Of a stretch of DNA of 64,000 nucleotides, positions 2,453 to 47,279 are shown one piece after another. Under the pieces are notes generated by a model. The model did no database searches. It was not told where the DNA came from and was given only the letters and a program-made list of their open reading frames with translations. This DNA comes from Escherichia coli (GTDB lineage: Bacteria > Pseudomonadota > Gammaproteobacteria > Enterobacterales > Enterobacteriaceae): the NCBI RefSeq assembly GCF_001677475.2, contig NZ_CP015229.1. One strand, written 5' to 3'. The first letter of the stretch is position 1. Each line of letters starts with the position of its first letter. A program made the translations under genes and the position numbers.

Positions 2453-3016
2453 ATGGAACGTTGCGGCTGGGTGAGTCAGGACCCGCTTTATATTGCCTAC
2501 CATGATAATGAATGGGGCGTGCCTGAAACTGACAGTAAAAAACTGTTCGAAATGATCTGCCTTGAAGGGCAGCAGGCTGGGTTATCGTGGATCACCGTCC
2601 TCAAAAAACGCGAAAACTATCGCGCATGCTTTCATCAGTTCGATCCGGTGAAGGTTGCCGCAATGCAGGTAGAGGATGTCGAAAGACTGGTACAGGACGC
2701 CGGGATTATCCGCCATCGCGGGAAAATTCAGGCAATCATTGGTAATGCGCGGGCGTACCTGCAAATGGAACAGAACGGCGAACCGTTTGCCGACTTTGTC
2801 TGGTCGTTTGTAAATCATCAGCCACAGGTGACACAAGCCACAACGTTGAGCGAAATCCCCACATCTACGCCCGCCTCCGACGCCCTATCTAAGGCACTGA
2901 AAAAACGTGGTTTTAAGTTTGTCGGTACCACAATCTGTTACTCCTTTATGCAGGCATGTGGGCTGGTGAATGATCATGTGGTTGGCTGCTGTTGCTATCC
3001 GGGAAATAAACCATGA
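2453..3016 (+). CDS. tag: DNA-3-methyladenine glycosylase I
   Basis: Internal ATG of ORF 2216..3016 gives a 187-aa protein (MERCGWVSQDPLYIAYHDNEWGVPE...) recognised as Tag; the longer upstream extension is not used. Confidence 0.9.
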   Translation: MERCGWVSQDPLYIAYHDNEWGVPETDSKKLFEMICLEGQQAGLSWITVLKKRENYRACFHQFDPVKVAAMQVEDVERLVQDAGIIRHRGKIQAIIGNARAYLQMEQNGEPFADFVWSFVNHQPQVTQATTLSEIPTSTPASDALSKALKKRGFKFVGTTICYSFMQACGLVNDHVVGCCCYPGNKP

Positions 3017-3453
3017 TTCGGGAAGCGCAACGTTCAGAACTCCCCGCGATCCTCGAACTGTGGCTGGAAAGTACAACCTGGGGGCATCCCTTTATAAAAG
3101 CGAATTACTGGCGTGATTGCATTCCGCTGGTGCGGGATGCGTATCTTGCCAATGCGCAAAACTGGGTCTGGGAAGAAGACGGTAAGCTTCTCGGTTTTGT
3201 CAGCATTATGGAAGGCCGATTTCTGGCAGCAATGTTTGTCGCACCGAAGGCCGTCAGACGCGGTATTGGTAAGGCGCTGATGCAATATGTGCAGCAGCGC
3301 CATCCCCATCTGATGCTGGAGGTTTATCAAAAAAATCAACCGGCGATAGATTTTTACCATGCGCAGGGTTTTCACATTGTCGATTGCGCATGGCAGGATG
3401 AAACCCAACTACCCACCTGGATTATGAGCTGGCCGGTGGATCAAACGCTGTAA
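3013..3453 (+). CDS. yiaC: GNAT-family N-acetyltransferase YiaC
   Basis: 146-aa ORF recognised as YiaC; start overlaps the tag stop by 4 nt (ATGA), suggesting translational coupling. Confidence 0.85.
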
Positions 3454-5755
3454 GTGTCAGTTCCGGACCGTTGTATTTTTCCAGCCATGCCAGCGCCGTA
3501 TTACCCGCACAGCCATTCCCCAGCCGCGAGCTGGGGAGATCTTTGGTCAGCACGTTCACTGCGCCGTTTTTACAAATACCGTCAGCGGTTAAATCCAGAT
3601 CCGGCCATGCCCCTTCGTGAATGCAAATCACGCCAGGTTTAATTCCCTCGCTAATGACTGCCCCGGCAAGAATTTGCCCGCGTGCGTTCCACAGCCGAAC
3701 AGTATCGCCATCTTGTATGCCGCGCGCCTGAGCATCGTCAGGATGAATGGTGACAGGCTCACGGTTTGCCACCGCGTACAATTCGCGCAGAGAACTGTAA
3801 TTCAGCTGGCTGTGCAGACGATGTGCCGGATGAGCAGAAAGTACCTGCAACTGTTCCGGTTCGGCATTGCCCTGCCATTCGTCCGGCTCCAGCCACATTG
3901 GATGCCCCGGGCAATCCGGATAAGCGTAATCAGCAATACGCTGCGAGAAGATTTCAATCTTACCACTGGCAGTTTTTAATGGATGCGCCTGCGGATCGCG
4001 GCGAAAATCGGCGAAGCGAATAAACCGCTCGCTGTCTGGGTTTTCCGGCATCTCAATTAACTGGTTGGCTTGCCAGAACTCAGCAAATGGCGGCAATTCA
4101 ACCTGCTGGCTTGCCCCGCGCTGCCGGGCAACGTTATAAAACGTTTCCAGCCATTGCAGCTCACTTTTTCCTTCCGTAAACCGCGCATAGCCGCCCTTCT
4201 CCCAACGTTCACTCAACTCGGCAAAGACATCAAAATCATTACGCGCTTCATAACGTGGCGGCACCACTTGTTTCATCAGCACCAGATGCTGATTGCTGTA
4301 ATCGCCGGTCATGGTGAGATCATTACGCTCAAACGAGGTGGTCGCAGGCAGAACGATATCCGCGTGTTTCGCCGCCGCCGTCCAGAAGCATTCAGAGATC
4401 ACCACCAGCTCCGGTTTTTGCCAGGCACGGATCAGGCGATTGGTATCCTGATGATGAGTAAAGTTGGCACCGCCCGCCCACCAGATAAAACGAATATCCG
4501 GGAAATGTCGGTCCATACCGTTATGTTGATATGCGCCACCGGGGTTTTCCAGTGCTTCAACAATGCGGGCAACAGGGATTTTATCCACCGCATCGGTGCC
4601 GCCAGGCAAGCTGCCCTGCATGGAAGAGAGCACCGCAGCGCGGCGAGTGGGGTTACCACCATTGGCAAAATGGTAAGAAAGTCCAAAACCGCCGCCGGGT
4701 GTGCCGATTTGCCCCAACATTGCCGCCAGCGTGACGATCATCCAGTGTTTTTGCTCACCAAACTGTTGGCGCTGCATTCCCCAGCCAGCCATCAGCATGG
4801 TAGTATTTTGATGGAAAAGAGCCGCCAGTTCGCGGATTTTCGCTGCGCCAACACCACAAATCCCTGCCGCCCATTCGGCGGTTTTCGCTATTCCGTCGCT
4901 CTCGCCCAGCAAATAAGAGGCGAAAACGTCATAACCTGTGGTGCAACGCGTCAGAAACGCTTCGTCGTGCCAGCCATTTTCCACCAGCGTATGGGCGATC
5001 CCTAGCATCAGCGCAACATCGGTGCCCATGTGCGGTGCCACCCACTCCATTTTATCGCCAAAGAAATCGACGGTTTCCGATCGCATTGGATCAATGCAGA
5101 TCAGCTTTTTCCCGCTGTCACGCAGTGCGGAAAAGTAAGAAAGCCCCTGCTCATCAGATGCATTCCACGCAATTTTCAGCGTATTGAGTGGGTTAGCACT
5201 CCACAACACCACGACATCGCTATGTTCCAGCACCAGCGGCCAACTGGTTTGCTGCTGATAGACTTCGCTGCCCCCCACGACATATGGCATGATCGCCTGT
5301 GCCGCGCCGGTCGAATAATCCCCCAGATGCCCGGTATAACCGCCTGCCAGCGCCATATAGCGTTGTAATAATGTCGAGGCCTTATGCAGCACGCCGTTTG
5401 AACGCCAGCCGTAGGAACCAGCAAAAATCGATGCCGGACCATAAGCCTCACGAATACGTTTATGTTGTTGGTGAATAAGCTCCAGCGCCTCATCCCAACT
5501 CACACGAACAAATTCATCCTGCCCACGAATGCCTTGCGGGTTTTCCGGTGACGCGAGAAAGCCTTTGCGCACCATTGGAAATCGTACCCGCGTATTGCTG
5601 TGAACCTGGTCGCGAACCGCGCTCTGCAAGGAATTTTCCATTCCTGTGGCTAACGCGCCACGTGAGCTAAACACGGTTTCGCCGTCAGTTTCAACCAGCA
5701 TGGGCCCCCAGTGGGCGGCAGTCAGAACGGAATATCGTGAGGATGAGTTGGCCAA
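3422..5755 (-). CDS. bisC: Biotin sulfoxide reductase (molybdopterin oxidoreductase)
   Basis: 777-aa ORF recognised as BisC ([26 protein letters not shown]...); 3' end overlaps the 3' end of yiaC by 32 nt, convergently. Confidence 0.9.
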
Positions 5756-5907
5756 ACCGAAGGCTCCTGAAAGGTTAGATGTATTGAGCAGTTAAATATT
5801 ACTTACAAATTTCCGAGTATTCCCAGGAATAATCTTCATGTTCACGCGGCATAATCTCCCGCCACGGAACCCGTGGCAAAGAATAAAAAGGTTATTAAGG
5901 ATTAACA

Positions 5908-6567
5908 ATGAAGAAACGTGTTTATCTTATTGCCGCCGTAGTGAGTGGCGCTCTGGCGGTATCTGGCTGCACAACTAACCCTTACACCGGCGAACGCGAA
6001 GCAGGTAAATCTGCTATCGGCGCAGGTCTGGGCTCTCTCGTTGGCGCGGGTATTGGTGCGCTCTCTTCTTCGAAGAAAGATCGCGGTAAAGGCGCGCTCA
6101 TTGGCGCAGCAGCAGGCGCGGCTCTGGGCGGCGGCGTGGGTTATTACATGGATGTGCAGGAAGCGAAGCTGCGTGACAAAATGCGCGGCACCGGTGTTAG
6201 CGTAACCCGCAGCGGGGATAACATTATCCTCAATATGCCGAACAATGTGACCTTCGACAGCAGCAGCGCGACCCTGAAACCGGCGGGCGCTAACACCCTG
6301 ACCGGCGTGGCAATGGTACTGAAAGAGTATCCGAAAACGGCGGTTAACGTGATTGGTTATACCGACAGCACGGGTGGTCACGACCTGAACATGCGTCTCT
6401 CCCAGCAGCGTGCGGATTCCGTTGCCAGCGCGTTGATCACCCAGGGCGTGGACGCCAGCCGCATCCGTACTCAGGGCCTTGGCCCGGCTAACCCAATCGC
6501 CAGCAACAGCACCGCAGAAGGTAAGGCGCAAAACCGCCGTGTAGAAATTACCTTAAGCCCGCTGTAA
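5908..6567 (+). CDS. yiaD: OmpA-domain lipoprotein YiaD
   Basis: 219 aa; lipoprotein signal peptide with lipobox (LAVSGC); glycine-rich linker; C-terminal OmpA-like peptidoglycan-binding region (...GYTDSTGGHDLNMRLSQQRADSV...). Confidence 0.9.
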   Translation: MKKRVYLIAAVVSGALAVSGCTTNPYTGEREAGKSAIGAGLGSLVGAGIGALSSSKKDRGKGALIGAAAGAALGGGVGYYMDVQEAKLRDKMRGTGVSVTRSGDNIILNMPNNVTFDSSSATLKPAGANTLTGVAMVLKEYPKTAVNVIGYTDSTGGHDLNMRLSQQRADSVASALITQGVDASRIRTQGLGPANPIASNSTAEGKAQNRRVEITLSPL

Positions 6568-6670
6568 TCCCTTTCATGCCAGGTGATGCAGAAATCACCT
6601 GGCATTCTTCAGTTTTCCTTCATCATATTTCAGGCTAAGGTGATCGCCTTATCAGTGAATGGAGAGAAGC

Positions 6671-7645
6671 ATGAAGCCGTCCGTTATCCTCTACAAAGCC
6701 TTACCTGATGATTTACTGCAACGCCTGCAAGAGCATTTCACCGTTCACCAGGTGGCAAACCTCAGCCCACAAACCGTCGATCAAAATGCAGCAATTTTTG
6801 CAGAAGCTGAAGGTTTACTGGGTTCAAACGAGAATGTAGATGCCGCATTGCTGGAAAAAATGCCGAAACTGCGTGCCACATCAACGATCTCCGTCGGCTA
6901 TGACAATTTTGATGTCGATGCGCTTACCGCCCGAAAAATTCTGCTGATGCACACGCCAACCGTATTAACAGAAACCGTCGCCGATACGCTGATGGCGCTG
7001 GTGTTGTCTACCGCTCGTCGGGTTGTGGAGGTAGCTGAACGGGTAAAAGCAGGCGAATGGACCGCGAGCATAGGCCCGGACTGGTACGGCACTGACGTTC
7101 ACCATAAAACACTGGGCATTGTCGGGATGGGACGGATCGGCATGGCGCTGGCACAACGTGCGCACTTTGGCTTCAACATGCCCATCCTCTATAACGCGCG
7201 CCGCCACCATAAAGAAGCAGAAGAACGCTTCAACGCCCGCTACTGCGATTTGGATACTCTGTTACAAGAGTCAGATTTCGTTTGCCTGATCCTGCCGTTA
7301 ACTGATGAGACGCATCATCTGTTTGGCGCAGAACAATTCGCCAAAATGAAATCCTCCGCCATTTTCATTAATGCCGGACGTGGCCCGGTGGTTGATGAAA
7401 ATGCACTGATTGCTGCATTGCAGAAAGGGGAAATTCACGCCGCCGGGCTGGATGTTTTCGAACAAGAGCCACTGTCCGAAGATTCGCCGTTGCTCTCAAT
7501 GACCAACGTCGTCGCAGTACCGCATATTGGATCTGCCACTCATGAGACGCGTTATGGCATGGCCGCCTGTGCCGTGGATAATTTGATTGATGCGTTACAA
7601 GGAAAGGTTGAGAAGAACTGTGTGAATCCGCACGTCGCGGACTAA
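6671..7645 (+). CDS. ghrB: Glyoxylate/hydroxypyruvate reductase B (2-ketoaldonate reductase)
   Basis: Internal ATG at 6671 gives 324 aa ([14 protein letters not shown]...); D-isomer 2-hydroxyacid dehydrogenase pattern with NAD-binding GxGxxG (GIVGMGRIG). Confidence 0.9.
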
Positions 7646-7694
7646 GCCGCGACTGCGTGGAGTAAAGCCCGATAATCGCTCGGGCTTTTACTCT

Positions 7695-8405
7695 TTATTG
7701 GGTTGCAGTAACTGCTGTAGTCCAGGCCTGATTAAACGCCTGATGCTGTGCCGGTAATGGCGCAATCAGTTTGTTATATTCACTTGCCTGTTGTGACGTC
7801 GGGAACTGGATGCCATTTGCTACAAAGCTCACCTGAGTACCTTGCTGAGCAATGTAGTCTCCAACCATCACCAGTTGTTGCGTGAAAGTTTGTGCCGCCG
7901 GAATCAACGGTTGCAATGCATCAGCTGGTGTCGTTACCACTTTGGTGAATGCCTGATCAAAGACCGGTTTCAAATCATCGGTCTGTTTTAGCGCAGAGTG
8001 CGCAGCATCGGCCTGCAACTTCGCATTTTGCAGTTGTTGCGCCAGCACACCTAGCGAACCGTTCATTTCACGCAGCGGACCGCTTTGCGTAACGTAATCC
8101 TGCGGTACGCGAATTGCGTTAACGCTGTCTACGACCGGGCGCAGACCGGAATCCATCGCCTGATTCACCTGCTGAGAATAACCATACAGAATCGCGTAAT
8201 CAGAGACAAAAGGACCAAACTGTTTTTTCTGATCGGCAGTCAGGGTTGGTAGACGTTCGCCGCTACGCATCACTGTATTCTGCAGGAAGTCGATAAACGC
8301 TTTACGCTGATCGCCTTCTTTATCAAAACACCCACTCAGGCTAACTACCATTAATAACGCCGCAAGAGGCGCAAACCAGCGAGAGCAGGACTTTCCTGTC
8401 GCCAT
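7695..8405 (-). CDS. yiaF: Putative inner-membrane lipoprotein YiaF
   Basis: Start placed at internal ATG 8405 (MATGKSCSRWFAPLAALLMVVSLSGC...), 236 aa with lipobox LSGC; the upstream ORF extension is not used. Confidence 0.8.
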   Translation of the reverse strand: MATGKSCSRWFAPLAALLMVVSLSGCFDKEGDQRKAFIDFLQNTVMRSGERLPTLTADQKKQFGPFVSDYAILYGYSQQVNQAMDSGLRPVVDSVNAIRVPQDYVTQSGPLREMNGSLGVLAQQLQNAKLQADAAHSALKQTDDLKPVFDQAFTKVVTTPADALQPLIPAAQTFTQQLVMVGDYIAQQGTQVSFVANGIQFPTSQQASEYNKLIAPLPAQHQAFNQAWTTAVTATQ

Positions 8406-28929: not shown

Positions 28930-29028
28930 GCCTGATGCGCTACGCTTATCAGGCCTACATGATTTCTGCAATATATTGAATTTGGTAGAATTTGTAGGCC
29001 GGATAAGGCGTTTTAGCCGCATCCGGCA
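28930..29028. repeat. BIME: pair of inverted REP elements
   Basis: GCCTGATGCGCTACGCTTATCAGGCCTAC (28930..28958) and GTAGGCCGGATAAGGCGTTTTAGCCGCATCCGGCA (28994..29028). Confidence 0.85.
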
Positions 29029-29075
29029 TAAACAAAGCGCACTATCCCTGCGTTGAGAAACGCCGGAAAAACGTT

Positions 29076-29549
29076 TCAAACAGGCTGCTGCCGTAGCCGA
29101 TGCCGCTGCACTTTCTCGACATCCATGCACTGCAATGCCTTTGTCGGGCAGGCTTCAACACAGGCCGGTCCCGTCTCCCGATGCCAGCACAGATCGCACT
29201 TAATCGCCCTCGCCTTTTTGCGCGAAGAAACGACCTCCATCGCACCAAACGGGCAAGCCAGCATACAGCTTTTACAGCCAATGCAACGTGTTTGTTCAAC
29301 GAAAATATGCCCATGTTCGCGGCTTATCGCGCCAACAGGGCAGACATTCGCGCACGGTGCATCTTCACACTGATGACAGGCTACCGCCGTGGTCCAGCAG
29401 TGGTCTTTAATGACACGAATACGGGAAATAAACTCGTCTGGTGACAACGCAGCGCAATCCTGATTCTCCTGATGCGACACTGCGCAAGCCACTTCACAGG
29501 TACGGCAACCGATACATTTCGTCGCATCCGCAATAATAAACCGGTTCAT
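29076..29549 (-). CDS. ysaA: 4Fe-4S ferredoxin-type protein YsaA (HycB-like electron-transfer subunit)
   Basis: Start at ATG 29549 (MNRFIIADATKCIGCRTCEVAC...), 157 aa; four Cys clusters of CxxCxxCxxxC type. Confidence 0.88.
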   Translation of the reverse strand: MNRFIIADATKCIGCRTCEVACAVSHQENQDCAALSPDEFISRIRVIKDHCWTTAVACHQCEDAPCANVCPVGAISREHGHIFVEQTRCIGCKSCMLACPFGAMEVVSSRKKARAIKCDLCWHRETGPACVEACPTKALQCMDVEKVQRHRLRQQPV

Positions 29550-29792
29550 GATCACTCCTTTGCACTAAAACAGCAGAGTGCCAGAGAGCGCGTCTCTACT
29601 GCTTTGATCCAACGAAGGAAATGTTAAAGTTTTGGCACTTGTCCAAAGCGTTATTTGATCGCGCCCTGGTCGTCCCTGACAGTAAATCCCAGTTCATTAG
29701 AAATAGCCTGCGCGGTTTCACGCAGTGGTTTCAGGAGATTTTTCTCCCCCACCTGTTTCAGACGTGATGTCGAAAGAGAAATCGACACGGCA

Positions 29793-30608
29793 CTACGAAT
29801 TGATATGTTCCTTGCTGTAACGCCGCTTCCACGCTGCTGGCGTTAAACCGGTGTGTTTGCGAAAAATCTGCCGGAAATAGCCAACGTCATTAAACCCGCA
29901 CAACGCCGCCACTTCCGTGAGCGATCGCGCTTCGCTAATTAACAGCTTTTCGGCTTCGCGCACCCGCTGGCGATGGATTGCTTCTGTTAACGTCAGATGA
30001 AACACCCGCCGGTAGACGCGCCCAAGATAATCGGCATTGCAGTACAGCTCGCGGGCCAGAAGCGCCGTAGAAAGCGGGCGATGATATTGCGTGCGGATCA
30101 GTTTCTGCGCTTTCCAGGCAAGGGTGGTGCCTGCGCCATCGGCCTGTTCATCAAGACGCGCGTCACGGGTGAGCTGCTGCAAAATGAGCAGCACAATAAA
30201 CTCCAGCGCCGGAGTGCGTTGATGCTTTTCCTGTTCGCTTAAGAACTGGCGAAACAGGGCCACCAGCGCCTGCGGATCGACAACCTTCGTTTGTTGCGGC
30301 ACGCTAAGATGAGTAAGCCAGCGAGGGTCGTTGTCCGGCGCTTTAACCTCAAAATGCAGCCAGTAAAATTTGAGATCGGCGGGAAAATCCTCCACCCCAA
30401 CATGTTGTCGGTTCGGCCAGAGTAATAAACTCTCTCCCGCATCGACCAGAAATATCCGTTCTTCTTCCTGAATCGTTAATCGACCTTTTTCGACAAAGAT
30501 AATTTCCCATGACTCCAGCCGCCTTGCAGGATGCCTCCCTACGCCACGGGAAATAAATAATCCACCATTTTGCACTTTAATCGGTAACGTCATGGATAAT
30601 TCGAGCAT
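29793..30608 (-). CDS. AraC/XylS-family transcriptional regulator (cupin-like N-domain plus C-terminal HTH)
   Basis: 271 aa; N-terminal effector-binding region; C-terminal AraC HTH (...LTEVAALCGFNDVGYFRQIFRKHTGLTPAAWKRR). Divergent from the downstream transporter gene. Start could be ATG 30608 or 30593. Confidence 0.8.
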   Translation of the reverse strand: MLELSMTLPIKVQNGGLFISRGVGRHPARRLESWEIIFVEKGRLTIQEEERIFLVDAGESLLLWPNRQHVGVEDFPADLKFYWLHFEVKAPDNDPRWLTHLSVPQQTKVVDPQALVALFRQFLSEQEKHQRTPALEFIVLLILQQLTRDARLDEQADGAGTTLAWKAQKLIRTQYHRPLSTALLARELYCNADYLGRVYRRVFHLTLTEAIHRQRVREAEKLLISEARSLTEVAALCGFNDVGYFRQIFRKHTGLTPAAWKRRYSKEHINS

Positions 30609-30833
30609 TGATATGTAATTTCCCGCTTATTCATTAATGATTAAACACATTACCTTTTGATTATTAATCAAAAATATTAATTTCACCTGATCCATTTCAC
30701 ACTTTTAAATTCAGGTCGGAATCGTCACCTTTTTTTACTCTTTTCTCGCCTTGTTGATATTCCCGTTCACGGCAGAATTAATCAGGTCATTTCAATAAAA
30801 CTAAAAATTGCTCCCTATTCACGAGGAATATCT

Positions 30834-32234
30834 ATGACCTCTACACCGATTACTACCGCTGATATCGCTAAAGGTAAAATTGACGATGCGTTATCTGTAC
30901 GGGAAAAAATAGGCTACGGCCTGGGTGACGCAGGCGGCACCGTAATAACTTGCCTGATCATGAATTTTCTCACCTTTTTCTACACCGACGTTTTTGGATT
31001 AACTCCGGCGCTGGTTGGCACGCTGTTTATTGCACTGCGCGTGTTTGATGCCATCTCCGACCCGGTGATGGGCGTCATTGCCGACCGGACGCAAAGTCGC
31101 TGGGGGCGCTTTCGCCCGTGGCAGCTATGGATTGCCATTCCCATCGGCATTATCGGCATCCTGACGTTCACCGTGCCAGATGCCAGCATGGGAGTAAAAA
31201 TCGCCTGGGCGTTCGGTACTTACCTGCTCCTTTCAGTCGGTTATACCGCCATCAACGTACCGTACTGCGCGCTGATCAACACCATGACCACCCGCCACAA
31301 TGAAGTGATCTCCTGCCAGTCCTGGCGATTCGTTCTCTGTGGCGTAGCGGGATTTCTGGTTTCGGTAGGCTTACCGTGGATGGTAGATCTCTTCGGTCAG
31401 GGTAATGCCGCGCGCGGCTATCAATTGGGCGTCGGCGTGCTGTGCGCCATTGCCGTGGTGATGTTCCTGTGCTGTTTTTTCTGGGTTCGTGAACGGGTGC
31501 CACTCTCCACAATGGGGAAATTTACCCTGCGCGAACATCTTGCCGGGCTGCGGAACAACGACCAACTGCTGCTGATGCTGGTCATGTCTTTCCTGCTGAT
31601 TAACGTCTTTAACATTCGCGGCGGTGGGTATATGTACTTCATTACCTACGTCTTACAAGGCAGTACGGGCTACACGTCGCTGTTCTTCACCATGGTCACC
31701 TTCGCCTCCATTATCGGCTCGGTGATTGTCAGCCCGTTAACGCGGCGTTTCGATACCGTCAAAATTTACTACTACACCAACCTGCTCCTCGCTGCGCTGG
31801 CGGTGTTGATGTGGTTCCTGCCCTCCGGCCCGGCTTATCAAACGCTGTGGCTGGCGGTGATCCTCGGTAATGGCGTAATTCTTGGCTTCACATTGCCACT
31901 GCACTTCTCATTGATGGCCTTTGCCGATGACTACGGCGAGTGGAAAACCCGCGTACGTTCTTCCGGCATGAACTTCGCCTTCAATCTGTTTTTCATCAAG
32001 CTGGCCTGGGCCTCCAGCGCCGGGATCATCAGCCTGCTGTTTATTTTTGTCGCCTACCAGCCTGGCGTGGAAAACCAGACCGCCAGTTCGCTTGGCGGGA
32101 TCGCGGCGATGGAAACATTACTGCCTGCGCTATTCCACCTGCTGCTGGCAGGGGCGATCCGCTTTTGCAAACTCAATAATCCTATGATGTCACGCATAGC
32201 TACCGACCTGCGTCAGCGTCATGTACAGCCTTAA
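30834..32234 (+). CDS. GPH-family (glycoside-pentoside-hexuronide) cation symporter, MelB/YicJ-like
   Basis: 466 aa, about 12 transmembrane helices; GPH hallmark [25 protein letters not shown]; GAGGA Shine-Dalgarno 8 nt upstream of the ATG. Confidence 0.85.
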
Positions 32235-32244
32235 GGAGCACAAG

Positions 32245-34215
32245 ATGAACATTTCGGAAGTCGATCTGCATAAACTGACGGTCAGCGATCCGTTCCTCGG
32301 TCAGTACCAACAACTGGTCCGCGACGTGGTGATTCCTTATCAGTGGGATGCCTTGAACGATCGTATCCCAGAAGCGGAACCCAGCCATGCGATTGAAAAC
32401 TTTCGCATTGCCGCCGGACTTCAGGAGGGTGAATTTTACGGGATGGTGTTTCAGGACAGCGACGTCGCCAAATGGCTGGAAGCGGTAGCCTGGTCGCTGT
32501 GCCAGAAGCCGGACGCCGAACTGGAAAAAACCGCCGACGAGGTAATCGAACTGATCGCCTCCGCCCAATGCGAAGACGGCTATCTCAATACTTACTTTAC
32601 GGTAAAAGTACCCGAAGAACGCTGGAGCAATCTGGCGGAGTGTCATGAACTTTACTGCGCCGGTCATCTGATTGAAGCCGGAGTCGCCTTCTTCCAGGCC
32701 ACGGGCAAGCGGCGCTTGCTGGAAGTGGTTTGCCGTCTGGCCGATCATATCGACAGCGTATTTGGTCCAGATGAAAGTAAGTTACACGGTTACCCTGGTC
32801 ACCCGGAAATTGAACTGGCACTGATGCGTCTGTATGAAGTGACCGAAGAGCCGCGCTACCTGGCACTGACGAACTATTTTGTCGAACAGCGTGGTGCGCA
32901 ACCGCACTATTACGACCAGGAATATGAAAAGCGCGGGCAGACCTCGCACTGGCACACCTACGGCCCGGCGTGGATGGTGAAAGATAAAGCCTACAGCCAG
33001 GCGCATTTGCCCATCGCACAGCAACAAACCGCCATCGGACATGCAGTACGCTTTGTCTATCTGATGACCGGCGTCGCGCATCTCGCGCGTTTAAGTCACG
33101 ATGACAGCAAGCGTCAGGACTGCCTGCGGCTGTGGAACAATATGGCCCAGCGTCAGTTATATATTACCGGCGGCATTGGCTCGCAAAGCAGCGGCGAAGC
33201 GTTCACTAGCGATTACGATCTGCCGAATGACACGGTATACGCTGAAAGTTGCGCCTCCATCGGCCTGATGATGTTTGCCCGACGAATGCTGGAAATGGAA
33301 GGCGACAGTCAATATGCCGATGTGATGGAGCGCGCACTGTACAACACCGTGCTCGGCGGCATGGCGCTGGATGGCAAACATTTCTTCTATGTGAATCCGC
33401 TGGAAGTACATCCAAAATCGCTGAAATTCAACCATATCTACGATCACGTTAAACCGATCCGCCAGCGTTGGTTTGGCTGCGCTTGTTGTCCGCCAAATAT
33501 CGCCCGCGTGCTGACCTCGATTGGTCATTATCTCTACACGCCGCGTGAAGATGCGTTGTATATCAACATATACGCAGGAAACAGCATGGAAGTGCCGGTA
33601 GAAAATGGCACGCTGCGCCTGCGGGTTAGCGGGAACTATCCGTGGCAGGAGCAGGTGACGATTGCGGTTGAATCGCCCCAGCCGGTACGTCATACGCTGG
33701 CTTTACGTCTGCCGGACTGGTGCACACAGCCGCAGATCATATTGAATGGGGAAGAGGTCGAGCAGGATATTCGTAAAGGGTATTTGCACATTACCCGCGA
33801 ATGGCAGGAGGGCGATACGCTGAATCTGACTTTGCCGATGCCGGTACGCCGCGTTTACGGTAACCCGCTGGTGCGTCACGTCGCCGGAAAAGTGGCGATT
33901 CAGCGCGGCCCGCTGGTGTATTGCCTGGAACAGGCCGACAACGGCGAGTCACTGCATAATCTGTGGCTGCCCACCGATGCGCCATTTACGACATTTGAAG
34001 GCAAGGGATTGTTTAGCCATAAGATCTTAATCCAGGCACCGGGTTACCGGTATGAACAGAGCAATCCAGAGCAGCAACCGCTGTGGCATTACGACAGCGC
34101 GCCAGCCAAACGCCAGACGCAAACTCTGACCTTTATCCCGTGGTTTAGCTGGGCCAACCGGGGTGAAGGCGAAATGCGGATCTGGGTGAATGAGGAAAAG
34201 CATTGCCATCCGTAG
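32245..34215 (+). CDS. Glycoside hydrolase family 127 (DUF1680, beta-L-arabinofuranosidase-like) protein
   Basis: Start at ATG 32245 (AAGGAG Shine-Dalgarno at 32233..32238), 656 aa. Motifs E-S-C (YAESCASIG) and C-A-C-C-P-P-N (WFGCACCPPNIARVL) match what I recall of the Zn/Cys catalytic centre of GH127 enzymes. Immediately follows the GPH symporter. Confidence 0.75.
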   Translation: MNISEVDLHKLTVSDPFLGQYQQLVRDVVIPYQWDALNDRIPEAEPSHAIENFRIAAGLQEGEFYGMVFQDSDVAKWLEAVAWSLCQKPDAELEKTADEVIELIASAQCEDGYLNTYFTVKVPEERWSNLAECHELYCAGHLIEAGVAFFQATGKRRLLEVVCRLADHIDSVFGPDESKLHGYPGHPEIELALMRLYEVTEEPRYLALTNYFVEQRGAQPHYYDQEYEKRGQTSHWHTYGPAWMVKDKAYSQAHLPIAQQQTAIGHAVRFVYLMTGVAHLARLSHDDSKRQDCLRLWNNMAQRQLYITGGIGSQSSGEAFTSDYDLPNDTVYAESCASIGLMMFARRMLEMEGDSQYADVMERALYNTVLGGMALDGKHFFYVNPLEVHPKSLKFNHIYDHVKPIRQRWFGCACCPPNIARVLTSIGHYLYTPREDALYINIYAGNSMEVPVENGTLRLRVSGNYPWQEQVTIAVESPQPVRHTLALRLPDWCTQPQIILNGEEVEQDIRKGYLHITREWQEGDTLNLTLPMPVRRVYGNPLVRHVAGKVAIQRGPLVYCLEQADNGESLHNLWLPTDAPFTTFEGKGLFSHKILIQAPGYRYEQSNPEQQPLWHYDSAPAKRQTQTLTFIPWFSWANRGEGEMRIWVNEEKHCHP

Positions 34216-34217
34216 GT

Positions 34218-34293
34218 TGGATAAGGCACTCGCGCCGCATCCAACGTAAGGAGCACATTGCCTGATGCGACGCTTAACACGTCTTATCAGGCA
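34218..34293. repeat. REP-like palindromic elements
   Basis: GGTTGGATAAGGCACTCGCGCCGCATCCAAC and GCCTGATGCGACGCTTAACACGTCTTATCAGGC between the GH127 gene and yiaT. Confidence 0.7.
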
Positions 34294-34344
34294 TACAAGT
34301 CGGTGCGAGAGCGTAGGCCAGCCGCACCGACATCCACCGGTGAA

Positions 34345-35085
34345 TTAAAAACGCCAGCTCACGCCGGTGACAAAGGTAAAACTCTCATTACGATCAATCA
34401 TCGGGCTGTCGGTAATCTCTTCCGGCAGCTCGCTGTATCCTGCGCTCGCCATCAATACGACGTGCTCTCCTATCGGGTATTTTGCCGTCAGGCTGACATA
34501 GGGCACCCAGGAATCCTGCGCGGAATAACTTGCCAGACCGCTACGACGGGACTCACTCTCTGAAATGCCATAGTAATAGTCACTGAAATTCTCGTCATAA
34601 TAGAGAACGCCCAGCGCAGGTGTCAGCGACAGACGACCTATCTGCATTTTGTGGAATACCGATAGCTCCCCCACCCAGCCGTTGCTGTTATCCAGAACGT
34701 CCGCAGCTGCAGAGGCTTTCACGGTTCCCCAACGCTCGTGGTGATACCAGGCAACCCCCGCCATAGCCGTACTATCACGCTTATCAAGCTGTTGCATGGC
34801 ATAATCGTCATTATCGGCAGGGTCAAATTCCAGCGGCATCCAGGATGCGGTCAGGCTAAGTTCATTTTTTTCACTTTGCGACAGAATAAAACCTAACGTG
34901 GTCTGACGAACATAAAAAGAATCACCTTCATAACTAATCAGGGGAATTGCCTTTGTATTTTCATTATAACCGCGATAAGGCGATTCATTATAAGCCGCAC
35001 CGGCACCAATGGATAATTCAGAAGCAGTTGCGCTTGCCATAAAAGGCAACGCAAATAACGCCACAATATTGCGGTTAATTAACAT
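34345..35085 (-). CDS. yiaT: Outer-membrane protein YiaT (MipA/OmpV family)
   Basis: 246 aa; signal peptide (ALFALPFMASATASE); beta-strand-rich; C-terminal ...GVSWRF with terminal Phe typical of outer-membrane beta-barrels. Confidence 0.85.
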   Translation of the reverse strand: MLINRNIVALFALPFMASATASELSIGAGAAYNESPYRGYNENTKAIPLISYEGDSFYVRQTTLGFILSQSEKNELSLTASWMPLEFDPADNDDYAMQQLDKRDSTAMAGVAWYHHERWGTVKASAAADVLDNSNGWVGELSVFHKMQIGRLSLTPALGVLYYDENFSDYYYGISESESRRSGLASYSAQDSWVPYVSLTAKYPIGEHVVLMASAGYSELPEEITDSPMIDRNESFTFVTGVSWRF

Positions 35086-35208
35086 GTCCGGTATTCCATT
35101 TTAAAATAAGATAAAAAAGAGTCGGCATAGTAATGCTTACAATTTCTCCGGTGCAAGATTCATATTTATATAGTAATATATAAAATTATATATAATTGGG
35201 CTGTTGCG

Positions 35209-36183
35209 ATGACAAAATTACAACTTAAGTACCGGGAGTTAAAAATTATCTCGGTAATCGCTGCCAGTGAAAATATCAGCCATGCCGCGACTGTACTTGG
35301 CATCGCACAGGCCAACGTCAGCAAATATCTTGCTGATTTTGAATCAAAAGTAGGTTTAAAAGTCTTTGACCGAACCACCCGGCAACTGATGCTCACACCT
35401 TTTGGTACCGCGCTGTTGCCATACATCAATGACATGCTGGACAGAAACGAGCAGCTTAATAATTTTATTGCAGATTATAAGCATGAGAAACGTGGTCGGG
35501 TCACTATCTATGCACCAACCGGCATAATTACCTATTTATCCAAACATGTAATCGATAAAATTAAAGATATCGGTGATATCACCTTATCGCTAAAAACCTG
35601 CAATCTTGAGCGTAATGCCTTTTATGAAGGCGTCGAATTTCCCGATGATTGTGATGTTTTAATCAGCTACGCTCCACCAAAAGATGAATCGCTGGTTGCC
35701 AGTTTTATTACGCAATATGTCGTAACCGCTTATGCCAGCCAGCGCTATCTTGAGAAACATCACATTAGCCGTCCTGACGAACTCGAACATCACTCCTGTA
35801 TTTTGATCGACTCAATGATGATCGACGACGCGAATATCTGGCGCTTCAACGTCTCCGGGAGTAAAGAGGTGCGGGATTATCGTGTGAAGGGAAATTACGT
35901 TTGCGACAACACGCAATCGGCGCTGGAGCTGGCACGAAATCACCTGGGGATTGTGTTTGCGCCAGACAAAAGTGTGCAGAGCGATCTGCAAGACGGCACG
36001 CTGGTGCCCTGCTTTCAGCACCCGTATGAATGGTGGCTGGATCTGGTGGCTATCTTCCGTAAACGGGAATACCAGCCCTGGCGGGTCCAGTATGTGCTGG
36101 ATGAAATGCTGCGTGAAATTCGCCACCAGCTTGCTCAGTCGCAGCAACTGCGGCCTGAACAAGCGGCGGAAAGCGAAGATTAA
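35209..36183 (+). CDS. yiaU: LysR-family transcriptional regulator YiaU
   Basis: 324 aa; N-terminal LysR HTH (...[37 protein letters not shown]). Confidence 0.85.
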
Positions 36184-39728: not shown

Positions 39729-39892
39729 GATCGTCTCCTTGCGGTGTGAGGTATAACAAGGGTAGACGTGACTGGCGAAATCTTCGCCAGCCGGTGACAG
39801 CTTTACGACGGCAATCACGAATTTACGGGCAAGGATTACAGAGATAATTGAAAAATCGGCTGACAATTTGCCAGCCGTTGTGGGAATGATGA

Positions 39893-46743: not shown

Positions 46744-47279
46744 ATCTGCCTCGGATTCACGCTTATCAGTGTTGTTTTTTGGCTGGCAGCCGGAAGGGAG
46801 TCAGGCTGATACTTTGACATTAATCTGCGTTTGCCAATCTCGCCATCACACCGAAGGATAATTTTAAAAGGCGATGAGTTGCTCAGTTACAAAACTGTCT
46901 TAAGGCAAAGTCAGAACATGTTGCAGATCACATCAGGTGAATTACCGAAGAAAATATCTTGTGATTCAGATCACAAAAATCTAACAAACCATCAAAACAA
47001 AAATGTGACATTACTCACATTTAAATGCCATTTTTAGCGAAAATCGCCGCCTTGTTGCTTTTTTACACAAGCGTTTTGTGATGAACGTCACGCCAATTAC
47101 CTCTCTACCCCCTATATTTATGTGACTGATATCACACAAAAGACCGTCGACTGGACAGTTAACCGATTCAGTGCCAGATTTCGCAGTATCTACAAGGTCC
47201 GGCTACCTCTGCCGCCACATTAACAAAAAACCTCGGGCTTCCAGCCTGCGCGACAGCAAACATAAGAAGGGGTGTTTTT
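46744..47279 (+). promoter_or_regulatory. mtlADR promoter/operator region
   Basis: 536-bp AT-rich non-coding region upstream of mtlA; known to carry the sigma70 promoter with CRP and MtlR operators. Individual sites were not mapped here. Confidence 0.5.

Follow-up and report, generated by a model that had tools for sequence, protein, structure and literature searches.

Does a strain of Escherichia coli that carries a three-gene module at the site where K-12 carries the yiaJ-sgbE operon owe that module to a replacement, and what might the module do? The question is posed by the window analyzed here, a 64,000-nucleotide stretch of contig NZ_CP015229.1 (assembly GCF_001677475.2), in which genes for an AraC/XylS-family regulator, a GPH sugar:cation symporter and a GH127 glycoside hydrolase lie between ysaA and yiaT. 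An initial annotation, made from the sequence alone, saw in these genes an alternative cassette occupying the yiaJ-sgbE slot. We arrive at a different history: a ~9-kb deletion, associated with microhomology, removed the adjacent yiaJ-sgbE operon from the window, and the module looks like a replacement only because this strain deleted its neighbor. As for function, we consider it likely that the three genes form a self-contained, substrate-inducible unit for the catabolism of beta-L-arabinofuranosides, one long resident at the site and brought into view by the loss of the operon beside it.

All three genes are real and intact. An open reading frame (ORF) scan places the regulator (271 aa) on the minus strand at 29793-30608, divergent from a plus-strand operon whose first gene encodes the symporter (30834-32234; 466 aa) and whose second encodes the GH127 protein (32245-34215; 656 aa), in agreement with the positions, divergent layout and 10-nt gap given by the initial annotation. 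That gap separates the end of the symporter stop codon (32234) from the GH127 ATG (32245). The plus-strand GH127 frame itself opens at 32221, and the annotated, Shine–Dalgarno-preceded start is 32245. The junction sequence, TAAGGAGCACAAGATG, holds a strong AAGGAG ribosome-binding site over the symporter stop codon; in the wider junction, CAGCCTTAAGGAGCACAAGATG, the symporter TAA is seen to be embedded in this AAGGAG, 6-7 nt before the ATG at 32245. The overlap of Shine–Dalgarno sequence and stop codon argues for a two-gene operon with co-translation and supports the start at 32245. The symporter ATG has its own GAGGA 7 nt 5' of it, and RefSeq coordinates for all three genes are identical in the collinear strain Combat11I9. 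The module's coding parts have a typical GC content of 0.53-0.57.

Which families these proteins belong to is equally plain, since Pfam matches far beyond chance bear out the earlier assignments to the AraC-type, GPH (PF13347) and GH127 (PF07944) families. The GH127 protein is a confidently classifiable family member, and the module as a whole is a standard regulator-symporter-hydrolase unit. In the GH127 protein, the catalytic (alpha/alpha)6 domain (PF07944, residues 12-427, E 6e-112) is followed by a middle beta domain (PF20736, residues 438-532, E 1e-23) and a C-terminal beta domain (PF20737, residues 534-649, E 3e-25). In the Protein Data Bank (PDB) its best match is 4QJY, a beta-L-arabinofuranosidase of family GH127 from Geobacillus stearothermophilus (784 bits; 54% identical residues across 644 aligned columns, spanning residues 11-650 of 656), followed by 3WKW, HypBA1 of Bifidobacterium longum (510 bits over a full-length alignment). 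Both of these top matches are named beta-L-arabinofuranosidase, whereas 6EX6 (“six-hairpin glycosidase”) and 5MQO reach only 387 and 320 bits; 5MQO was deposited as a beta-L-arabinofuranosidase, and we take it to be the aceric acid hydrolase BT1003.

The catalytic machinery can be followed residue by residue. In HypBA1, Cys417 serves as the nucleophile and Glu322 as the acid/base, and a zinc ion is held by three cysteines and one glutamate (PMC8106489). A HMMER alignment pairs E322, E338, C340, C417 and C418 of HypBA1 with E318, E334, C336, C414 and C415 of the E. coli protein, which predicts E318 as acid/base, C414 as nucleophile and E334, C336, C414 and C415 as Zn ligands. The E-S-C and C-A-C-C-P-P-N motifs to which the initial annotation had drawn attention fall at residues 334-336 and 412-418, so its placing of a Zn/Cys active site here is borne out, and the catalytic and Zn residues are invariant across an alignment of 81 orthologues. 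Equally invariant in these orthologues are H134, H186 and H266, which align with H142, H194 and H270 of HypBA1, presumably ligands of the sugar, L-arabinofuranose (L-Araf). Because the N terminus (MNISEVDLHKLTVSDPF...) is without a signal sequence, the enzyme is placed in the cytoplasm, and by homology the 656-aa protein is a predicted cytoplasmic beta-L-arabinofuranosidase (EC 3.2.1.185).

The symporter scores 331.8 bits against TIGR00792 (gph) over residues 25-462, above the curated cut-off of 231.35, and matches PF13347 (MFS_2) over residues 27-448 (E 9e-73), making it a GPH:cation symporter (TC 2.A.2). Its best NCBIfam models are those for xyloside symporters of YagG type (NF007237; 354.6 bits, cut-off 610) and YicJ type (NF008526; 323.1 bits, cut-off 836), yet both scores lie well under the respective cut-offs, so it is a paralogue rather than a member of either type. 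The regulator combines an N-terminal cupin-type ligand domain (AraC_binding, residues 26-132, E 1.3e-9) with a C-terminal double helix-turn-helix (HTH_18, residues 184-263, E 4e-19). Tried as AraC proper (NF007860, an equivalog model), it reaches 61.1 bits over its full length, under the cut-off of 208, and is thus not an AraC orthologue.

Between the divergent genes lies an AT-rich control region of 225 bp (30609-30833), where GC content falls to 0.39-0.44. A MAFFT alignment of 68 orthologous intergenic regions, from 68 species, reveals five conserved blocks, 30658-30667, 30697-30705, 30711-30742, 30749-30756 and 30772-30782, at 84-97% conservation versus 59% overall. The first of them is part of a palindrome, TTTTGATTA-T-TAATCAAAA. 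The second overlaps a putative CRP site on the plus strand, CCTGATCCATTTCACA (30686-30701), found by pattern matching with two mismatches to TGTGA-N6-TCACA, and the bases kept across genera are the GATC and the TCACA (30697-30701) of this site. The longest conserved noncoding block, the 32-nt plus-strand sequence TCAGGTCGGAATCGTCACCTTTTTTTACTCTT (30711-30742; mean conservation 0.87 across the 68 species), is a candidate binding site of the AraC-family protein acting as an activator. It lies immediately upstream of a weak -35-like element, CCTTGTTG (30749-30756, plus strand), and a weak -10-like element follows, GCAGAATTAAT (30772-30782, plus strand), which includes GCAGAAT; as read from the sequence, the geometry of putative activator site and promoter would resemble that of araBAD, with a predicted transcription start around 30785-30790. 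At the other end of the operon, a pair of palindromic repeats of the repetitive extragenic palindromic (REP)/bacterial interspersed mosaic element (BIME) type occupies 34215-34293, between the GH127 stop codon and the 3' end of yiaT, and is probably the 3' end structure of the operon. The pair scores 58.7 bits (E 8.5e-9) against the REP-derived Rfam model naRNA4, whose gathering score is 59.5, matches on both strands, and finds a reverse match in another REP near aldB. An Rfam scan of 29000-35500 detected no riboswitch or leader, this naRNA4-like, REP-derived element being the sole match.

How might these parts work together? A small beta-L-arabinofuranosyl glycoside, for example Araf-beta-1,2-Ara or Araf-beta-hydroxyproline (Araf-beta-Hyp), would cross the outer membrane through porins and be taken up by the GPH symporter, whose direction of transport and coupling are predicted. 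Its source would be plant hydroxyproline-rich glycoproteins or pectic side chains, from which the extracellular enzymes of other organisms would free it; since the E. coli locus is without an extracellular releasing enzyme, the cell would scavenge material released by others. In the cytoplasm, the GH127 enzyme would act with retention, its Zn-held cysteine nucleophile passing through a cysteinyl-glycosyl intermediate to yield L-arabinose, which the core araBAD pathway would consume. The AraC-family protein would sense the glycoside or its product and activate the two-gene operon, probably together with CRP. Such uptake and cleavage of beta-L-arabinofuranosides, already suggested in the initial annotation, appears to be the most plausible role of the module.

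Several points nevertheless weigh against this proposal, in which the substrate is the weakest link. Its identity would be extrapolated from 4QJY, at 54% identity, and from the more distant HypBA1, and the GH127 family includes other specificities. Searches of a paper library found no biochemical, transport, regulation or expression data for this protein or any enterobacterial orthologue, and we know of no extracellular E. coli enzyme that frees such glycosides, so that supply would depend on others. Nor are arabinose-related partners found beside the triads located off-site in Pantoea and Enterobacillus, the second copy in Citrobacter gillenii or the Bradyrhizobium homologue described below; the neighbors at these loci are all unrelated genes, namely those for a diguanylate cyclase, an AI-2E transporter and a peptidase, purF, ubiX and a gene for a LacI-type regulator. 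In the control region, the putative CRP site at 30686-30701 taken alone stands at chance level, given that the pattern matches 28 times over the window against 27 expected. A simple sigma-70 scan called no promoter in 30609-30833, which is to be expected of an activator-dependent promoter, yet is not positive evidence; because it called none, it is to the cross-species footprints that the promoter proposal must appeal.

The alternative that survives this scrutiny best keeps the three-gene unit and changes its nutrient: the GH127 enzyme would have another specificity, be it for another furanoside, for an aceric-acid-type or 3,6-anhydro-galactoside-type substrate, or for one not yet described. 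GH127 is indeed polyspecific, literature searches found no assay of any enterobacterial member, the PDB relatives include entries named otherwise, such as 6EX6, and the only NCBIfam match of the protein is the aceric acid hydrolase equivalog model (NF049879, E 1.6e-136). That match, however, amounts to 456.4 bits, far under the model's 950-bit cut-off, with its best stretch confined to residues 252-649, and we reject it as an equivalog assignment, whereas the two full-length PDB matches at 784 and 510 bits, as against 387 and 320 bits, were deposited as beta-L-arabinofuranosidases, and the histidines that we take to bind L-Araf in HypBA1 all have invariant counterparts here. A different specificity thus strikes us as unlikely, though it deserves more weight than any other alternative, and we continue to favor beta-L-arabinofuranoside catabolism.

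Could the module instead be cryptic or decaying, without function in this strain? Loss is certainly common, for over half of E. coli genomes are without the module as a result of at least two independent deletions, and literature searches found no expression data. The genes themselves tell otherwise. All three ORFs are full length relative to their homologues and are under strong purifying selection, with nonsynonymous-to-synonymous substitution ratios (dN/dS) of 0.00-0.06 within E. coli and 0.03-0.14 between genera; compared with the Citrobacter, Klebsiella and Enterobacter orthologues, the regulator gives 0.07-0.14, the symporter 0.05-0.06 and the GH127 gene 0.03-0.08. With catalytic residues invariant and regulatory blocks kept across 68 species as well, decay in this strain is quite improbable, and a working catabolic unit remains the reading to which we hold.

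The antiquity of that unit emerges from its distribution beyond E. coli. One genome per species was scanned, which yielded 265 stretches encoding a GH127 relative, and the best 80 of these 265 were taken as loci whose neighboring genes were identified by tblastn. Among these best 80 loci, the triad of minus-strand regulator, plus-strand symporter and plus-strand GH127 gene recurs in about 70 Enterobacterales species, with GH127 identities of 72-96%: in Citrobacter, the Klebsiella oxytoca group, Raoultella, Enterobacter, Leclercia, Lelliottia, Kluyvera, Phytobacter, Kosakonia, Pantoea, Buttiauxella and Mangrovibacter, and also in Salmonella enterica subsp. diarizonae and Escherichia whittamii. 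In most species the triad stands either after sgbE or directly after avtA-ysaA, and in many yiaT-yiaU then follows; both left-hand arrangements occur inside single genera, namely Citrobacter and Enterobacter. This synteny across genera identifies the triad as the stable resident of the site, while it is the yiaJ-sgbE operon that comes and goes. In essence, the module is an old, long-resident chromosomal unit at this site in Enterobacteriaceae.

Some relatives depart from this pattern. In Escherichia whittamii (region 4657-5552), sgbU appears to lead straight into the AraC-family gene, a full-length match to sgbE being absent between them, which may be a further local deletion variant. Some genomes, among them an Enterobacteriaceae metagenome-assembled genome and Citrobacter gillenii (~4979-8360 in the regions compared), have at another place an additional GPH-GH127 pair, a paralogue with ~70% identity; in C. 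gillenii it adjoins a LacI-family regulator near purF and ubiX, the AraC-type triad being present at the yiaT site as well. In several Bradyrhizobium genomes there is a GH127 protein that shares 71-72% identity with that of E. coli, with neither an AraC-type regulator nor a GPH symporter adjoining; such identity, unusually high across classes, suggests that the enzyme gene moved horizontally by itself.

Within E. coli, the history of the site can be read from the arrangements that survive. We compared 29500-34400 by megablast with 5426 complete E. coli genomes and resolved the states of the locus with junction-spanning queries and annotated regions. At least 80% of the module's length is present in 2311 of the 5426 genomes, always on the chromosome and never on a plasmid. 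In 1893 genomes, exemplified by EC0026B, the two units stand in tandem, in the order ysaA-yiaJ-yiaKLMNO-lyxK-sgbHUE, regulator-symporter-GH127, yiaT; they are thus neighbors and not alternatives. K-12 represents a second state (2461 genomes), in which the intact yia operon is followed by 102 nt of the regulator 3' end, 189 nt of the GH127 gene and then yiaT. The third, found in 426 genomes including the window, Combat11I9 and O157:H7, has the intact module preceded by a 141-nt 3' fragment of yiaJ. A fourth, seen in CFT073 and accounting for part of the ~646 remaining genomes, has sgbE abutting aldB (CFT073 region 2587-4867), the module and yiaT, yiaU, yiaV and yiaW being absent. In E2348/69 (O127:H6), the query match is limited to the same sgbE stretch as in CFT073.

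The window bears the scar of its own deletion. Gene order runs ysaA, yiaJ remnant, regulator, symporter, GH127, yiaT, and the remnant, the final 47 codons of yiaJ, which encodes an IclR-family repressor, on the minus strand (29651-29791), is the left-hand trace of what was lost; at the collinear position in Combat11I9, RefSeq marks a partial IclR pseudogene. Window positions 29000-29791 align to EC0026B region 4234-5024 at 97.7% identity, whereupon the alignment jumps to 14001, leaving ~8987 bp missing: the 5' part of yiaJ, yiaKLMNO, lyxK and sgbHUE. Three-way sequence comparison puts the junction at 29788-29791, at a CGGC common to the yiaJ side (CGACACGGC followed by GTACGG) and the sgbE/regulator side (CGCCCCGGC followed by ACTACG), a 4-nt exact microhomology across which the window reads CGACACGGCACTACG. 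The junction lies 1 nt from the regulator stop codon (29793-29795), and the hairpin CCGGGGCTTCATCGCCCCGG, located between sgbE and the regulator gene in the tandem arrangement, has been lost from the window. A 141-nt yiaJ remnant that abuts the regulator stop codon means that the window arose by a ~9-kb deletion and not by a swap.

The initial annotation's picture of a horizontally acquired alternative cassette that replaced yiaJ-sgbE, understandable in that the module sits between ysaA and yiaT where K-12 indeed has yiaJ-yiaKLMNO-lyxK-sgbHUE and in that both units pair a divergent regulator with an operon, is barely credible when 1893 genomes hold both units in tandem, the boundaries of the two gene sets differ, each deletion has left its scar (a yiaJ remnant against the module in the window, module fragments 3' of sgbE in K-12), and the module is syntenic in many genera, typical in GC content and without plasmid copies. 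Its observation that no mobility genes flank the module holds, the neighbors being ysaA and yiaT.

K-12 took the opposite path, deleting the module and keeping yiaJ-sgbE. The initial annotation had supposed K-12 to be without the module at this position, which is right for the intact module, but remnants persist there as ysaC and ysaD. The regulator gene has left 102 nt of its 3' end, which match window 29781-29896 at 94.8% identity, and the GH127 gene has left 189 nt, which match window 33918-34107 at 89.5%. About 4 kb is gone between the ysaC and ysaD fragments, and the 3' end of the GH127 gene went together with the REP region in a second deletion of ~210 bp, whose junction lies at CCAGCC, a 6-nt repeat. 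The genotype of one K-12 strain in the literature gives the site as yiaS-ysaC::...::ysaD-yiaT.

The window's junction recurs outside the species. Escherichia sp. E1V33, the sole other locus with a yiaJ remnant among the cross-species loci compared, shares it exactly (region 5400-5560, corresponding to window 29751-29800), although the surrounding 400 nt is only 93% identical. The shared junction could be an old deletion allele or one exchanged between species, or the same microhomology could have been used twice. More tentatively, the repeated, lineage-specific loss of either unit and the occurrence of one junction in two Escherichia species could be the work of selection and not of drift.

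What would follow for the biology of E. coli if our functional prediction holds? Plant beta-L-arabinofuranosides would join the strain-variable carbohydrate repertoire of the species and its relatives, and the K-12 pseudogene fragments ysaC and ysaD would be given a function. One may go further and imagine a cross-feeding niche in which ~43% of E. coli and most Enterobacteriaceae genera have a dedicated route to take up and cleave beta-L-arabinofuranosyl disaccharides or Araf-Hyp that other microbes, of the gut or associated with plants, free from plant extensins, for instance by the extracellular GH121 of Bifidobacterium, which would be one such source. This extension is tentative, and we regard it as possible rather than probable. 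Were it true, separate deletions would have cost K-12, the B2 strains and many others a cross-feeding route, and the route would have gone unstudied because K-12 lacks the module. Irrespective of substrate, the locus shows cleanly how independent deletions can wear a single ancestral arrangement down to four states, and it carries a practical warning: judged against K-12 only, a deletion passes for the replacement of a gene cassette.

The locus is in itself ordinary and already annotated, the chemistry of GH127 is well established, and nothing here will surprise a specialist. The novelty implied by the initial annotation does not stand: the three genes carry RefSeq annotation in over 2300 complete genomes, and their patchy distribution is already a topic of two pangenome studies of E. 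coli. A 2021 preprint gives a prevalence of 98.8-100% in two E. coli clades and of 29.5-67% in others. In a 2024 study of inflammatory bowel disease isolates, the E. coli GH127 gene is one of the accessory genes reported to co-segregate with invasion of epithelia, the study assigning its function by citing the HypBA1 paper (PMC11879602; commentary in PMC11954838). Literature searches on GH127 with E. coli or Enterobacteriaceae, Ara127N, ysaC and ysaD found no enterobacterial GH127 enzymology, in keeping with the earlier remark that the activity is uncharacterized in E. coli. Since K-12 lacks it, the module is a sensible small target for characterization.

Elsewhere in the window, a few further differences came to light. 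At 39841-39848, the window is without the Fic-family gene that Combat11I9, the closest complete genome (39849-41207), and CFT073 carry between aldB and yiaY, and in this it resembles K-12. From ~45208 onward, collinearity with K-12 ends: in K-12, rhsA comes next to yibF, whereas the window runs yibF-yibH-yibI-mtlA like Combat11I9, the RhsA element being absent. Four CRP consensus sites, three of them perfect (TGTGA-N6-TCACA), are packed into ~180 bp at 46960-47136, which, from collinearity with Combat11I9, is probably the region upstream of mtlA.

The systems already known to science offer four points of comparison. Within E. coli itself, GPH symporters are coupled to cytoplasmic glycosidases in yagG-yagH, yicJ-yicI, uidB-uidA and melB-melA, the last with the AraC-type MelR. 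The module shares with these units the cotranscription of a GPH symporter and a glycoside hydrolase of the cytoplasm, to which a dedicated regulator is often added, but their hydrolases belong to GH43, GH31, GH2 or GH4, whereas here the partner is GH127 and the symporter a distinct paralogue. The remains of the same module in K-12, ysaC and ysaD, are nonfunctional fragments between sgbE (yiaS) and yiaT.

Among enzymes, the best solved relative is Ara127N of G. stearothermophilus T-6 (4QJY/4QK0), with the same three-domain architecture and identical E-x-C and C-A-C-C-P-P-N motifs, though it comes from a Gram-positive thermophile and the substrates that the E. coli protein accepts are predicted only. 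Its gene reportedly lies in a large L-arabinan utilization cluster with ATP-binding cassette (ABC) transporters, unlike the three-gene unit of E. coli. HypBA1 of B. longum, less similar at 510 bits, is likewise an intracellular GH127 enzyme, and its Glu322/Cys417 pair and Zn(Cys3-Glu) site align with E318/C414 and E334/C336/C414/C415. In B. longum, an extracellular GH121 frees Araf-beta-1,2-Araf from extensin-type glycoproteins; once a dedicated importer has brought the disaccharide into the cell, HypBA1 cleaves it there (PMC7263609). HypBA1 belongs to a beta-arabinooligosaccharide system with HypAA, HypBA2 and an ABC importer, in which extracellular GH121 and GH43 enzymes make the substrate and the importer relies on a binding protein specific for beta-Ara2; at the E. 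coli locus, a GPH symporter stands in place of the ABC importer, and extracellular partner enzymes are absent.

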